DNA of 64,000 bases, taken from the NCBI GenBank assembly GCA_013334575.1, contig JAAXXG010000001.1, positions 208,315-272,314 on the forward strand, written 5' to 3'. The notes below the pieces were generated by a model. It saw only the letters and a list, made by a program, of their open reading frames with translations. It did no database searches and was not told the origin of the DNA. Within the stretch, counting starts at the first letter, position 1. Every line of letters begins with the position of its first letter. The stretch comes from Candidatus Moraniibacteriota bacterium. GTDB lineage: Bacteria; Patescibacteriota; Minisyncoccia; Moranbacterales; UBA1568. Of the stretch, positions 45,534 to 49,242 are shown piece by piece. The position numbers were made by a program, and so were the translations under genes.

Positions 45534-45769
45534 ATGGCTCCAATGGATAACTAACCCGCGGCATCTTCGTGCGCTGACCCGCTCTCGAAGACGAGTGGGC
45601 AACTTACAATAGCTCAGGATCGGTCCTTTCAGGACTTTTCATTCACTCACAGTATACATGACACGCATATCATATTAAAGAAGACAGGAAAACGTATGAA
45701 AGATACGAAAGAGAAAAGAGAGAGTCAGAAAGCACATTCCACCTTATTATATTACCCCTTTTCGCGGTA

Positions 45770-45798
45770 TTGACATTATTATTTTTTTGATATATAAT
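45770..45798 (+). promoter_or_regulatory. Consensus sigma70 promoter TTGACA-17-TATAAT (cassette 1)
   Basis: Exact hexamers 45770-45775 and 45793-45798 in AT-rich DNA. About 45 nt upstream of the lipoprotein ORF. Confidence 0.55.
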
Positions 45799-45842
45799 AT
45801 TCATAATAATTTCTAGTAACAACAAACGAAAAAACAGCGATC

Positions 45843-46091
45843 ATGAAACAGCTCGTTTCCATTCTTTCAATTCTCTTCCTGGTCGGCTGCAGCCAAAACC
45901 AGGAAAGCAAGTACTCCCGTGGAGAAACGGCGGTTGACACGACCGTGGCGGCCTCAAACCAACACGGCTCTACCTCCGCTTCGGTACGGGCAAAAGCGCC
46001 AGAGGGATATCATATCGACTACAAGATCGAAGTGGAGAGTGGGCCGGGATATTCCAGCTCCTCTTCGGAGGTATTCATACGGAGCAAATAG
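45843..46091 (+). CDS. Small lipoprotein (82 aa), hypothetical
   Basis: Signal peptide with lipobox LFLVGC. Ser-rich mature part. Own promoter and terminator. Confidence 0.5.
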   Translation: MKQLVSILSILFLVGCSQNQESKYSRGETAVDTTVAASNQHGSTSASVRAKAPEGYHIDYKIEVESGPGYSSSSSEVFIRSK

Positions 46092-46118
46092 CTGTCCGTG
46101 TACGGCATCAAGATTAAA

Positions 46119-46157
46119 CAGCACTCGATTCATCCGAATACGAGTGCTCTTTTTTAT
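46119..46157 (+). terminator. Rho-independent terminator after lipoprotein gene
   Basis: cagcactcg...cgagtgct hairpin followed by cttttttatt. Confidence 0.65.
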
Positions 46158-46627
46158 TCAAACCGTAGTTCCTCCCACCGGACCGGATCAGTTTCAAGTG
46201 ATGCGAGGGTCGGATGATTCATGTCCTTCTCGGACAGAATCACCCCTTCCGCGATCGGCCAGTCGATACCGAGCACAGAATCGTTCCACGGGATACCGCG
46301 GTCATGATCTCGGGAATAGACGTCGGCGCATTTGCAGGAGAAGACCGTTTCAGGCTTCGTCGTCAGGAATCCGTGTGCGACTCCGCCGCAAAATGCACGA
46401 CCGCGTCGCATTCCGCGACAAGCGGCTTCACGGCCTCCGGATCGGCGATGTCTCCCTTTACGAATCGGGGTCGCGGATTTCCTTCGGCTTCCCTCAAGTT
46501 CTCCAGATTCCCCGCATAGGTAAGCAGATCGAGCACCACGACCTCGTCCTCCGGGTGTTCCCGCAGGACATGATGCACGAAATTCGACCCGATGAATCCG
46601 GCTCCGCCGGTGACAAGCAGTTTCATA
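46154..46627 (-). pseudogene. Chimeric remnant: rmlB 5' portion (codons 1 to about 85) joined out of frame to rmlC 3' portion (last about 75 codons)
   Basis: 46374-46627 is about 95% identical to 45290-45533 (rmlB 5' end). 46146-46375 is homologous to the 3' third of rmlC (48660-48895). The junction sits at shared microhomology (ccgtgYgcga). The two ORF pieces (46363-46671 and 46154-46411) are in different frames. Confidence 0.8.
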
Positions 46628-46775
46628 TTTCGATACGGAAATTGAACGGGATTCGCATCACAAGTACACATGAGTCCTATGGTAGCGAAAACCCGACAAT
46701 CTCAATCATATTCCGAAGAATCGCCCGTTTAAAATCATTATTTTCCCTTATTTACGATAATATTACCGCCTACTA

Positions 46776-46804
46776 TTGACAAAAGCTTAAAAATGGAGTA
46801 TCAT
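46776..46804 (+). promoter_or_regulatory. sigma70 promoter TTGACA-17-TATCAT (cassette 2)
   Basis: Hexamers at 46776-46781 and 46799-46804, upstream of the small TM ORF. Confidence 0.5.
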
Positions 46805-46847
46805 AGAAAGTTGATTTGAATATTACTAACAAAAATAGAAGCCATCA

Positions 46848-47003
46848 ATGTACTATAACATCGAAGTTACCGGCTCGAAGGTCGCGATGTATGTGCTGAC
46901 CTTCATTATGCTCATCGGCAGTTTCGCCGTCGGGCCAAAAATTATCCCGGAGACGGTCTACTATGCGACCGCTCCGGAAATCGTCGTCACGGCCACCAAA
47001 TAG
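46848..47003 (+). CDS. 51-aa single-TM peptide (MYYNIEVTGSKVAMYVLTFIMLIGSFAVGPKIIPETVYYATAPEIVVTATK), hypothetical
   Basis: Hand-translated ORF below the ORF-track cutoff. Own promoter upstream and hairpin plus T-run (47025-47058) downstream. Confidence 0.35.
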   Translation: MYYNIEVTGSKVAMYVLTFIMLIGSFAVGPKIIPETVYYATAPEIVVTATK

Positions 47004-47046
47004 CCGTGCGACGGCAAAAAGTTTCGGTCTCACGCGCCCCCATGCG

Positions 47047-47140
47047 TGCGGCCGATTTTTTTATTTCCCGAACTTCAGCTCCTCCCAACAGGCCGGGTCG
47101 GATTCAAGCGCGGCGAGCGTCGGATGGTTCCGGTCCTTAT
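47047..47140 (-). repeat. Third copy of rmlC 3' end (about 90 bp, 2 mismatches vs 48662-48735), fused downstream of SDR gene
   Basis: cccgaacttcagctcctcccaacaggccgggtcggattcaagcgcggcgagcgtcggatggttccggtcctta is nearly identical to the genuine rmlC terminus. It encodes KDRNHPTLAALESDPACWEELKFGK* right after the SDR stop codon. Confidence 0.8.
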
Positions 47141-47946
47141 TCAGACTCTGCTTCGATGTTCTCTTCCGAGATCGTAACGACCTCACACTGACCGATCGGC
47201 ATGTTGTACTCCCCCGTTTCGGCATCGAATTTCATTCCGGAAAGCGCCATCTTCGATACGATCCGTCCGACAATCTCAGGATCCCTCAAGGCACCCTCTT
47301 GAATGATCTGCGCAGTACGTTTCCTTACGGCACCGCTTCCATGCTCCAAGATGTCCTTGTGCATCCGTGTATCACAAGATCCCGGTATGACCGAAAAAAT
47401 AGCGATTCCTTCATTCTCAGGTCGTTCGGAAAATTCTTGCAGCCATTCTTCTATCCGTTTCTTGGAAACTCCATACGATTCCACCCCTTCAATATTCTTT
47501 GCGGACGAGGACAAAAAGACAACTCGCCCATGAGTTCTTCTCAAAGCCTCTGACGCCTCTCGCGTCATGGCAACCTGCGCCACCTGGTTAACCTTGAACG
47601 TATAATCCAGGCCTTCTGTTATACCTGTCACTGCTGCGTTTAAAATAAGCACGTCGAGACCTTCAAGCTCATCGATACTTTCACGTACGAACCCTGACGC
47701 CGCACGGCGATCCGAGAGATCAACCTGACGAGCGATAACATCTTCGTGCTCGCCAGAAAATTCGACCAGCTTATCTTTGGTCCTCGCACAAATAGCCATC
47801 TCATGTCCATCCGAAGACAATTCCTCGGAAATCGCCCGGCCAATTCCTTCCGTTCCGCCAGTAATGATAATTCGCTTCCGCTCGATTTCATTCGTCACAC
47901 GATTGGGTGCGTACTTTTCTGCAAGGTTCCCGAACATACGCGTCAA
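47137..47946 (-). CDS. SDR-family short-chain dehydrogenase/reductase with non-SDR C-terminal tail derived from rmlC
   Basis: TGGTEGIGRAI Rossmann motif and NAAV...YGVSK (YxxxK). Lower GC than flanking core genes. Last about 20 codons (MPIGQCEVVTISE...) align in frame to rmlC DWPIREGLTISD at the DNA level. Confidence 0.85.
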   Translation of the reverse strand: MTRMFGNLAEKYAPNRVTNEIERKRIIITGGTEGIGRAISEELSSDGHEMAICARTKDKLVEFSGEHEDVIARQVDLSDRRAASGFVRESIDELEGLDVLILNAAVTGITEGLDYTFKVNQVAQVAMTREASEALRRTHGRVVFLSSSAKNIEGVESYGVSKKRIEEWLQEFSERPENEGIAIFSVIPGSCDTRMHKDILEHGSGAVRKRTAQIIQEGALRDPEIVGRIVSKMALSGMKFDAETGEYNMPIGQCEVVTISEENIEAESE

Positions 47947-48127
47947 TTACATTCCCTTATATTCAGTATACACGAGTGATAAATCGACGTGAAACACGAG
48001 TTCGGAAGATAGCGTCCATGTCGATCCAAATCGGAACATCCCGACAATGCATGACTTTCTTCCTGCTAATAGCATTCCGGAAAACCTCAATATTCGGCTC
48101 TGTTAAAGGACTTTACGGTTTGGAACA

Positions 48128-48156
48128 TTGACATGGATTATAAATTAAACCATAAT
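48128..48156 (+). promoter_or_regulatory. sigma70 promoter TTGACA-17-CATAAT (cassette 3)
   Basis: Hexamers 48128-48133 and 48151-48156, upstream of the secreted protein ORF. Confidence 0.5.
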
Positions 48157-48206
48157 GCATAGTCAGTATCAGACGATTGACCGCTTAACAACCAAACCGC
48201 AAAACA

Positions 48207-48596
48207 ATGAAACACTCACCGTTCGCCCTGTCCAAGGCTTATGCCGCCGCAATTATCATGTTCATCTACCTGTTCATCCACCAGGGACCTGTCCACGCCG
48301 AAAGCATCGCGGGTATCAAGCCCAAGGTTTCGATCACCGCGGCATACAACCACTATGGGTTCGAGCCGATTCTGCACGTCGACTATCCAGGGCCATATGA
48401 GGTAAGTACCAGGGAGCTCAATTCAAATGTTGAAATCCGGTACATATGTAACGGGCCGACTGACATAAAGTTATTCTCGCCGGGAGATTTCACTTTTATC
48501 AAGGTGTACGCGCCGGACAAGAATCATAAGGAGACCCTGATCCTGAAGGGGAAAATCAGGAACGATGGTAACAAGACCGTCACGTTCGAGCGATGA
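48207..48596 (+). CDS. Small secreted protein (129 aa) with cleavable signal peptide, hypothetical
   Basis: Signal peptide AAIIMFIYLFIHQGPVHA|ES. Predicted beta-rich mature domain. Own promoter and terminator. Confidence 0.5.
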   Translation: MKHSPFALSKAYAAAIIMFIYLFIHQGPVHAESIAGIKPKVSITAAYNHYGFEPILHVDYPGPYEVSTRELNSNVEIRYICNGPTDIKLFSPGDFTFIKVYAPDKNHKETLILKGKIRNDGNKTVTFER

Positions 48597-48618
48597 TTCC
48601 TACCTCGCAACACACAAT

Positions 48619-48656
48619 AAGCGCTCCAATTCCAAACGGAGCGCTTCTTTATTTCC
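48619..48656 (+). terminator. Rho-independent terminator after secreted-protein gene (convergent with rmlC)
   Basis: aagcgctcc...ggagcgctt hairpin followed by ctttatttcc. Confidence 0.65.
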
Positions 48657-48669
48657 TTGATCGGACGTT

Positions 48670-49242
48670 TCAGACGAACCTCAGCTCCTCCCAACGGGCC
48701 GGGTCGGATTCAAGCGCGGCGAGCGTCGGATGGTTCCGGTCCTTATCCGAAATCGTAAGTCCCTCGCGGATCGGCCAGTCGATACCGAGTTCGGAATCGT
48801 TCCAGAGAATACCGCGGTCATGATCGCGGGAATAGACGTTGGTGCATTTGTAGGAGAAGACCGTATCGGGTTTCGTCGTCAGGAATCCGTGCGCGAATCC
48901 CCGGGGAATAAAAAACTGTCGGTGATTCTCCGCAGAGAGCGTCACGGCGACATGCTTCCCGAAGGTCGGTGAGTCGCGGCGGATGTCGACCGCCACGTCG
49001 AACACCTCTCCCGAAACGACCTGGATGAGCTTTCCCTGCGAGAAGGGTTCGGCCTGATAATGAAGACCGCGCAGTGTTCCGACCGGTCTCGAGAACGAGA
49101 GATTGTCCTGCACGAAATCCGGCAGACCGATCGCGGCATACCGTTCCCGGCTGTAGGTTTCCTTGAAATAGCCGCGCTCGTCCGAAAAAACGTCCGGCTC
49201 GATGATGAGGACTCCGGGAATCTCCGTTTCGATGACGTTCAT
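48670..49242 (-). CDS. rmlC: dTDP-4-dehydrorhamnose 3,5-epimerase
   Basis: Cupin RmlC motifs (RGLHYQ ... FIPRGFAHGF ... NVYSRDHDRGILWND). Confidence 0.9.
   Translation of the reverse strand: MNVIETEIPGVLIIEPDVFSDERGYFKETYSRERYAAIGLPDFVQDNLSFSRPVGTLRGLHYQAEPFSQGKLIQVVSGEVFDVAVDIRRDSPTFGKHVAVTLSAENHRQFFIPRGFAHGFLTTKPDTVFSYKCTNVYSRDHDRGILWNDSELGIDWPIREGLTISDKDRNHPTLAALESDPARWEELRFV

Follow-up and report, generated by a model that had tools for sequence, protein, structure and literature searches.

In Enterobacteria, the rhamnose (rml) genes at the ends of O-antigen clusters serve as recombination junctions and as homology arms for neighboring variable surface genes. Replacement flexible genomic islands carry different, non-homologous cell-envelope genes at the same position, typically in surface-glycan loci (PMC4033161), and orphan-module arrays built by displacement have been described for type VI secretion effector-immunity genes of Vibrio cholerae and for the C-terminal displacement of Rhs and contact-dependent inhibition (CDI) proteins (PMC5361080). 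Homology-facilitated illegitimate recombination is described for Acinetobacter, Streptococcus pneumoniae, Pseudomonas stutzeri, and Escherichia coli (PMC3240628), and, among the Patescibacteria, natural competence and homologous recombination of incoming DNA have been demonstrated in Saccharibacteria (PMC10633639). The locus described here lies in a 64,000-nucleotide (nt) stretch of a Candidatus Moraniibacteriota metagenome-assembled genome (MAG) (GenBank assembly GCA_013334575.1, contig JAAXXG010000001.1, positions 208,315-272,314; hereafter the window), in which the gap between the rhamnose genes rmlC and rmlB holds three small-gene cassettes separated by pieces of the flanking genes.

This gap is a variable slot whose content has been exchanged between diverged lineages; it contains one illegitimate junction, and cassettes have been stacked in it at least twice independently, in the window and in a relative from another metagenome (L169). 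The probable explanation is a hypervariable replacement slot that turns over by homologous exchange, with occasional illegitimate joins that add cassettes rather than replacing them. Open reading frames (ORFs) and profile searches place the gap at 45534-48669, between two intact minus-strand genes: rmlB, encoding dTDP-glucose 4,6-dehydratase (44532-45533, 333 amino acids (aa), TIGR01181 505 bits against a cut-off of 365), and rmlC (48670-49242, 190 aa, TIGR01221 238 bits against a cut-off of 156). Together with rmlD of the same locus (TIGR01214 233 against a curated cut-off of 224), both pass the full-length equivalog hidden Markov model test for the dTDP-L-rhamnose pathway. Read in rml transcription order, the array consists of rmlC, a 129-aa cassette gene, a short-chain dehydrogenase/reductase (SDR) gene, 72 nt of the rmlC 3′ end, a 51-aa cassette gene, 252 nt of the rmlB 5′ end fused to 233 nt of the rmlC 3′ end, a lipoprotein cassette gene, and rmlB; the window thus holds three slot alleles in series.

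A first-pass annotation made from the letters of the window had described this interval as a low-GC island of three modules sharing one layout, and most of its parts list holds. The gap has 48.7% GC against 57.8% for the window, unevenly spread (promoter and leader stretches 34-40%, genes 50-53%, rml fragments 55-60%); the three plus-strand promoters lie exactly at the positions it gave (45770, 46776, and 48128), each is followed by a small exported or transmembrane (TM) gene with one N-terminal hydrophobic segment at the coordinates claimed, and each gene is followed by a hairpin with a T-run. Cassette 1 comprises a promoter matching the consensus at 12 of 12 positions (TTGACA-17-TATAAT, 45770-45798, plus strand), a gene for an 82-aa predicted lipoprotein with lipobox LVGC (45843-46091, plus), and, separating this gene from the adjacent rmlC fragment, a terminator hairpin flanked by A/T runs (46120-46152; dG -18.9 kcal/mol on the plus and -21.5 kcal/mol on the minus strand, z -3.5 and -3.95). 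Cassette 2 has an 11/12 promoter (TTGACA-17-TATCAT, 46776-46804, plus), a gene for a 51-aa peptide with a single, N-terminal TM segment (46848-47003, plus), and a hairpin and T-run terminator (47024-47068, plus; dG -22.7 kcal/mol, z -2.6). Cassette 3, again with an 11/12 promoter (TTGACA-17-CATAAT, 48128-48156, plus), encodes a 129-aa predicted secreted, beta-rich protein with a signal-like N-terminus ending in VHA (48207-48596, plus) and shares its terminator hairpin with rmlC (48619-48646; dG -16.9 and -23.7 kcal/mol, z -3.3 for the former). The window has 12 promoters with at most one consensus mismatch, which makes this the ordinary promoter form of the genome and no peculiarity of the cassettes; the gap region holds 13 promoter-like sites where 3.6 are expected. 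An Rfam search of the island found no RNA family.

The three modules do not have a common layout, because an intact SDR gene (47137-47946, minus strand, 810 nt, 269 aa, a classical SDR oxidoreductase with PF00106 at E 4e-30), with its stop inside the 72-nt rmlC copy, lies between modules 2 and 3. The first-pass annotation had missed this gene, and also that the longer rmlC fragment is fused to 254 nt copied from the 5′ end of rmlB. The SDR has its own promoter (47965-47993, minus) with a -10 of the same TGTATACT type as that of rmlB. Generic SDR models alone match the protein, and only some lineages have an SDR gene after the slot (the window, L082 at 6904-7731, and L171 at 3-440).

Relatives were found by exact-protein look-ups and by scanning metagenomes for the KH-domain gene that lies upstream of rmlC and is specific to the lineage. 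In a genome-collection scan with RmlC, generic RmlC patterns dominated, and among the matches listed there was one close relative (L002). The nearest relative, the MAG GCA_013336155.1 (L001), has an RmlB protein identical to that of the window. Its flanks match those of the window at 99.1% beyond rmlB (9.0 kb) and at 98.9% beyond rmlC (6.4 kb), both genes included, with homology ending at window positions 45534 and 48675. Its rmlC-rmlB spacer is only 444 nt and consists of a terminator, one antisense gene for a 53-aa TM peptide, and a promoter; this unit is homologous to module 2, including the flanking 72-nt rmlC end and 252-nt rmlB start. The 51-aa peptide of the window is a 70% aa homolog of this sole cassette gene, the cassette 2 terminator is almost identical to the one 3′ of rmlC in this relative, and window positions 46629-46775 are homologous to the region upstream of its rmlB.

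The other single-cassette alleles belong to more diverged lineages. In L086, L087, and L088, an antisense 82-aa lipoprotein gene is the sole occupant between rmlC and rmlB, and window positions 45758-46380 are colinear with L086 at 80% identity. L082 (with L002 and L083-85) and L171 have rmlC, an antisense gene for a 129-130-aa secreted protein, and SDR; L082 alone of these contigs extends past the SDR gene, and next in it come a diverged remnant of the rmlC 3′ end, a second Nudix gene, and rmlB. L090 has an antisense 174-aa TM-anchored protein gene with a 12/12 promoter between rmlC and rmlB. L169 carries rmlC, an 83-aa lipoprotein gene, a copy of the rmlB leader, a 63-aa TM protein gene, and a second copy of the rmlB leader. 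This is a second, independent stack; its two leader copies are spaced 505 nt and agree at 100% over 30 nt and at 89% over a further 19 nt. A short rmlC remnant between the L169 cassettes was considered and dropped, as its local alignment score of 14 compares with a shuffle mean of 14.7. In six distant relatives, with RmlC 57-62% identical, rmlC and rmlB are 20-45 nt apart.

Across lineages, then, at least five unrelated cassette genes occupy the slot, which runs from the rmlC stop to the next gene's promoter. Its usual content is one self-contained cassette facing rmlC, in which a consensus sigma-70 promoter precedes a small gene for an exported or membrane protein and a hairpin terminator abuts the rmlC stop. 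The first-pass annotation would have been refuted by a conserved arrangement; related genomes are variable, with different single cassettes at the same point, and in distant ones rmlC is next to rmlB. Its view of a recurrent recombination point at which convergent cassettes have been stacked is borne out for the rmlC-rmlB gap; the rmlC 3′ end is not the sole anchor, as the rmlB 5′ end with its promoter and leader is equally involved. Some further variation was seen at or near the locus. In the unrelated metagenomic contig L170 (19-1014), and only there, the lipoprotein cassette adjoins a DDE_Tnp_1 transposase gene in place of rmlB, an insertion sequence (IS) insertion in or beside the slot. 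L082 (at 9783-10298), and likewise L083 and L084, have between KH gene and murF an additional 171-aa ORF, oppositely oriented, that the window lacks and that may represent a further small insertion of variable kind. The short-read contigs L002, L083, L084, L085, L086, and L089 end 64-180 nt from a cassette promoter or the rmlC stop, and these independent contig ends suggest population heterogeneity that breaks assemblies there.

Transfer between lineages is clearest for cassette 3. Between the window and L082, identity is 90.8% in the non-coding 47947-48206, 93.1% in the 129-aa gene, 90.9% in the terminator, and 84.7% in the last 72 nt of rmlC, but 74.8% in the remaining rmlC, 72.7% in SDR, and 68-83% in the other backbone genes; the tract of high identity begins at the SDR promoter, 47965-47993. 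Synonymous divergence (dS) of the 129-aa gene is 0.097, where rmlC gives 1.21 and SDR 1.67. Selection cannot account for non-coding DNA being better conserved than the coding sequence on either side of it, and the cassette, approximately 47960-48735, therefore moved recently between lineages. The SDR gene is ruled out as part of this recently moved unit, as its divergence from L082 is at backbone level (72.7% nt, 75% aa, dS 1.67). The same discordance appears for the lipoprotein gene, with dS 0.34 against L086 where rmlC gives 1.86 in the same comparison, and, in the opposite direction, for the 51-aa gene, with dS 0.40 against L001 despite flanks that are about 99% identical. Different non-homologous genes at one locus and discordant island and flank divergence are what replacement islands display, and segment identities, dS contrasts, and single-cassette alleles elsewhere mark the inserts as foreign DNA. 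Crossovers fell within the last 60-110 nt of rmlC and in the promoter or 5′ end of rmlB or SDR for the 129-aa cassette, and probably did so for the others. Since the backbone is 99% identical to that of a one-cassette relative, the slot content was presumably exchanged as a unit or its edges were patch-converted. Elsewhere in the backbone, differences from L001 cluster in rmlD at 43601-43851 (20 single nucleotide polymorphisms (SNPs) in 250 nt) and in murF at 50066-50816 (about 26 in 750 nt), which suggests further short recombination tracts.

The gene pieces between the cassettes record how the alleles were joined. Self-BLAST of the window returns three repeats far beyond chance. The first, 254 nt long and 94.5% identical (E 1e-112), is the rmlB 5′ fragment (46375-46628, minus strand; the first 252 nt of the gene plus 2 nt upstream), in which Pfam matches the N-terminal Rossmann part only. 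The second, of 224 nt and 80.8% identity (E 1e-56), lies in the rmlC 3′ fragment (46152-46384, minus; the last 233 nt, lacking the start), where 46161-46384 aligns with 48677-48900 and PF00908 covers profile positions 111-167 only. The third, with 97.2% identity (E 4e-30), is the 72-nt rmlC 3′-end copy (47069-47140, minus), which matches 48675-48746, contains a 48-nt perfect match to the real rmlC end, and holds the SDR stop TAA (47137-47139). Both rmlC copies had been recognized correctly, although the range first given for the longer one, 46146-46411, runs into the rmlB copy.

The rmlB and rmlC fragments meet at 46370-46384, where position +252 of rmlB is joined to position -233 of rmlC across about 5 nt of microhomology (CGCAC) with mismatched reading frames; the ORFs that cross the junction, 46363-46671 and 46154-46411, are in different frames. 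With a short microhomology at the join and homologous rmlB and rmlC sequence on its two sides, this is an illegitimate join. The junction of SDR with the 72-nt rmlC copy (47140/47141) has the same context, GAA.AAGGACC, in L082, where the remnant has diverged. This insertion, flanked by a target repeat, is thus old, whether inherited or transferred, and the 97% match of the window remnant to the real rmlC end points to a later crossover or gene conversion. The break in homology at 48674/48675 is not a separate illegitimate join and corresponds in part to an 18-nt indel before the conserved terminator A-tract GGAAATAAA.

Patches of substitutions fit the same picture. SNP clusters relative to L001 fall exactly in the repeat-covered ends of the real genes: in rmlB nt 1-33, four substitutions are shared with the fragment copy and not with L001, a second small patch lies at rmlB nt 111-123, and the last 72 nt of rmlC (48675-48746) carry 7-8 substitutions that match the internal 72-nt copy, the last codon and stop (V*) being L082-like. 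The slot may have been imported whole from a lineage 6-12% diverged, with crossovers here, or the resident ends may have been converted by the fragments.

The internal pieces could also be read as products of an internal history, in which successive in-situ duplications of the rmlC 3′ and rmlB 5′ ends left older copies to decay as pseudogenes, and the first-pass annotation had likewise assigned the rmlC copies different ages. The junction topology, downstream flank to upstream flank, is of the tandem-duplication type, and copy identities are graded at 97%, 94%, and 80%. The substitution pattern contradicts this account. Synonymous changes dominate in both fragments, with dN/dS (the ratio of nonsynonymous to synonymous divergence) 0.08 at dS 0.20 for the rmlB fragment against real rmlB and 0.16 for the rmlC fragment against real rmlC, and neither fragment contains a frameshift or stop codon. 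The rmlC fragment is moreover a mosaic: by quarters it is 89/84/72/73% identical to the window rmlC and 68/67/75/85% to that of L086, so that affinity switches from a window-like 5′ half to a lipoprotein-lineage 3′ half at the conserved block GGTATCGACTGGCCGATC. Only gene-derived ends are repeated, with spacers that are non-homologous to each other and match the alleles of other lineages, which is not the structure of a simple tandem duplication, and a 99%-identical genome lacks the whole array. Duplication and decay in place is already largely refuted and must be regarded as highly improbable. By the dN/dS values, the intact frames, and the mosaic affinities, the fragments evolved inside functional genes of other lineages; they are xenologous recombination scars, pieces from different lineages and not old in-situ duplicates.

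A different concern is that the array was produced by assembly. Exact-sequence look-ups found no second assembly with the arrangement of the window, in a collection of 15 billion proteins the cassette proteins of the window occur on one contig only (locus tags HGB18_012xx), and no relevant literature was found on these MAG accessions or on Moranbacteria with rhamnose. This dependence on a single assembly is why a chimera, in which three co-occurring one-cassette strains or species were concatenated through common rmlC and rmlB sequence, stays the main caveat. In favor of a chimera are the MAG origin of the sequence and the likeness of its pieces to alleles of separate lineages; the 48-nt perfect match between the 72-nt copy and the real rmlC end could mislead a k-mer assembler, and related contigs break 70-180 nt from cassette promoters, a sign of graph complexity at the locus. 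The junctions themselves speak against it. Only 5 nt are shared at the rmlB(+252)::rmlC(-233) junction, which no single-cassette allele contains and which therefore cannot result from shared k-mers; the adjacency of SDR and rmlC(-72) occurs independently in L082; and the leader-to-terminator adjacency of L169 is not derivable from single alleles. The conversion-like patches at the real gene ends, which match the internal fragments, are expected if both copies share a genome. A chimera is accordingly unlikely, and the hypervariable replacement slot remains the preferred explanation.

Under that explanation, the usual process would be replacement of cassette alleles via homologous recombination. 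Rarely, in the manner of homology-facilitated illegitimate recombination, one end of incoming DNA might be joined illegitimately at a microhomology within a flanking gene; an equivalent route would be a tandem-duplication junction followed by replacement of one copy. Either way an allele would be added, and truncated rmlC 3′ and rmlB 5′ copies would stay between the cassettes. A cassette bracketed by direct repeats of a conserved gene end could then be spread or deleted by ordinary recombination, and the direct repeats imply that the array itself is deletable.

Circular intermediates offer another way to add a cassette: excised between direct repeats, they would re-integrate by a single Campbell-type crossover in rmlC 3′ or rmlB 5′ sequence and so yield insertions between long target repeats, with no illegitimate step needed in the recipient. 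Direct repeats of a conserved flank do enclose all three additions, at lengths of 72 nt and 254 nt in the window and about 50 nt in L169, and a crossover inside such a repeat should leave copies that are hybrid and patchy. A non-replicating circle would nevertheless have to survive and be transferred, whereas natural transformation imports linear single strands, and a 94% rmlB fragment next to an 80% rmlC fragment could not come from one donor circle, given usual ratios of rmlB to rmlC divergence. As a general account the circle route is unlikely; Campbell-type integration may have served in some steps.

Several points weigh against the replacement-slot explanation and the mechanism just outlined. 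The window stack is present in one MAG contig only, its junctions lacking an independent assembly, and no sampled genome is a direct donor of any piece, the best matches being 80-93%. Homology-facilitated illegitimate recombination, tandem duplication with replacement, and single-crossover integration are competing routes, and more than one order of events is compatible with the array. The sharp cassette boundaries could come partly from selection and not from crossover preference. Finally, promoter firing is a prediction from sequence, and the cassette proteins have no Pfam, PHROG, or PADLOC hits and, in the modeled case, a predicted local distance difference test score (pLDDT) of only about 55.

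Little can be read from the cassette proteins by homology. Searches with them against Pfam, PADLOC, PHROG, and viral (IMG/VR) databases gave no match, and NCBIfam gave nothing except one sub-threshold hit for the lipoprotein; with PHROG, PADLOC, and IMG/VR empty, a phage or defense origin is not supported. The 129-aa protein has one 63%-identical relative, in the same slot (L171), and matches weakly to the SpaA/prealbumin-fold repeats of a 3173-aa adhesin-like protein (E 6.5e-6), and its AlphaFold2 model is beta-rich and of low confidence (pLDDT 54.8). BLASTP among cassette types detected no convincing similarity; the 129-aa and 174-aa proteins were considered as distant homologs, and this was rejected as too weak at 24% identity and E 3e-4 in a seven-sequence database. 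Cassette genes have dN/dS 0.36-0.64, several-fold above the flanking enzymes (0.08-0.12). The cassettes probably encode strongly expressed envelope or secreted proteins under relaxed or diversifying, strain-level selection, a predicted role that fits their place in a surface-glycan locus.

It would be a larger claim that the rmlC-rmlB gap is a selected, integrase-independent cassette platform and dedicated expression slot, collecting small envelope- or secreted-protein genes with strong promoters and exchanging them between species with conserved housekeeping gene ends as arms, in which stacking is regular and the cassettes mediate strain-specific host or phage interactions. That claim seems rather unlikely as a whole. 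What the locus does provide is a junction-level record of recombination among diverged, uncultivated lineages of the candidate phyla radiation (CPR), with crossovers tens of bases from gene ends and at least one illegitimate join, and direct evidence of such recombination in CPR bacteria is scarce. It is also a compact slot turning over small, probably abundant exported proteins in a cell-surface sugar locus, and these proteins are natural candidates for strain-level factors in host or phage interaction of episymbionts. For genome-resolved work, loci of this kind interrupt short-read assembly and can either imitate strain variation in MAGs or conceal it.

The second edge of the slot is set by the rmlB leader, which carries its own promoter (45534-45769, minus strand) with the extended -10 element TGTATACT and a -10 hexamer at 45651-45656; the promoter call is TTAATA-16-TATACT, running from 45678 to 45651. 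The TCATGTATACTG block is invariant in the leader alignment and lies upstream of rmlB in all close lineages, with a similar one upstream of SDR. This conserved extended -10 gives rmlB a promoter of its own, and in the high-GC clade of Moranbacteria to which this genome belongs each of rmlC and rmlB forms its own transcription unit. The copy of the leader and promoter that belongs to the rmlB fragment (46629-46775, minus) has its -10 mutated to TGTGTACT (46663-46668). Extended -10 elements occur in the window at 45649-45660, 46661-46672, and 47963-47974.

Some features outside the slot were recorded as well. The spacer from the KH-domain gene to rmlC contains a perfect palindrome of 28 nt (49290-49317), GTAGAGACGGGGCA/TGCCCCGTCTCTAC, which is followed by a T-run and forms a strong terminator-like hairpin that is also present in L001. 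The longest Nudix ORF (43942-44616, minus) overlaps the rmlB 3′ end by 85 nt; in the annotation of the relative, Nudix starts later (183 aa), and the gene probably begins further downstream. Additional short islets of low GC content (35-40%) lie at 13001-13350, 14601-14950, 32351-32550, and 63651-63950 of the window, with perfect or near-perfect TTGACA/TATAAT promoters at 13200 (plus), 14844 (minus), 32367 (plus), and 63858 (plus); two of the islets flank a 348-aa ORF at 13603-14649 (minus).

Compared with known systems, the array resembles an integron in that short, exchangeable, mostly single-gene units stand in line at one chromosomal site. A dedicated mobile-cassette system, whether integron-like or using an unknown site-specific recombinase encoded elsewhere to insert next to rmlC, would account for compact, self-contained cassettes with similar bounds (the rmlC stop with its A-tract on one side, the TGTATACT promoter element on the other), for at least five unrelated cassettes in one slot, and for two independent stacks. 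Unlike in integrons, however, there is no IntI, attC, or attI, each cassette has its own promoter (11-12/12) and terminator, and the junctions are pieces of flanking genes with variable breakpoints. No integrase domain was found in the island ORFs or flanking genes, the syntenic 17 kb containing only housekeeping families by Pfam, and neither integrase nor transposase occurs in the island or in about 18 kb of annotated flanks. No attC-like site was found at the cassette ends, where the hairpins differ in sequence, share no common core site, carry T-runs, and fold as ordinary terminators. Nor are there hallmarks of an IS or transposon, as the island has no transposase, no inverted repeats bound the modules, and the direct repeats are gene fragments of 72-254 nt. 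The repeats, 50-254 nt with L169 included, have different breakpoints each time, which points to homology-driven or illegitimate events and not to site-specific ones, and imported tracts reach variably into rmlC. A site-specific system is therefore hardly credible, and the absence of integrase, IS, and attC-like sites reported in the first-pass annotation is upheld; its further statement that no described class obviously fits is not, for known recombination processes account for the structure.

The systems named at the outset provide the comparison. In the O-antigen clusters a variable polysaccharide cluster stands beside the rml operon, whereas here the variable slot lies inside the rml series and holds unrelated small-protein genes. 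Replacement islands share with this locus exchange through recombination in conserved flanks and divergence spikes at the edges, and differ in that they are multi-gene glycosylation clusters where the units here are single cassettes of 0.3-0.8 kb; the alleles here are also additive, being stacked and scarred, and the host is a CPR bacterium. Homology-facilitated illegitimate recombination has the same signature as the rmlB(+252)::rmlC(-233) junction, a one-sided homologous anchor and a microhomology join (CGCAC) linking a diverged allele, although in the present case it is read from sequence only; net duplication of recipient sequence is not its commonest outcome, and tandem duplication plus replacement leaves the same scar. 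Orphan-module arrays are close in form. In both, acquired modules enter beside a conserved upstream gene and push older ones downstream, leftover 3′ pieces of the conserved gene remain (here two rmlC 3′ remnants precede cassettes 2 and 1), and no integrase takes part, homology-facilitated illegitimate recombination having been proposed with plain homologous replacement commoner. The conserved genes here are, by contrast, housekeeping sugar-nucleotide enzymes and not toxins, and the C-terminus of the conserved epimerase RmlC varies by 1-3 codons only; the modules encode small exported proteins in antisense genes that have promoters of their own and show no toxin or immunity signature by Pfam or PADLOC, and the downstream gene rmlB and its promoter also leave scars. 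No new class of mobile element is needed. Homologous recombination with rare illegitimate joins suffices, as in replacement islands and orphan arrays, and the rmlC-rmlB gap is a recombination hot spot with scars, made by known processes in a poorly studied phylum.

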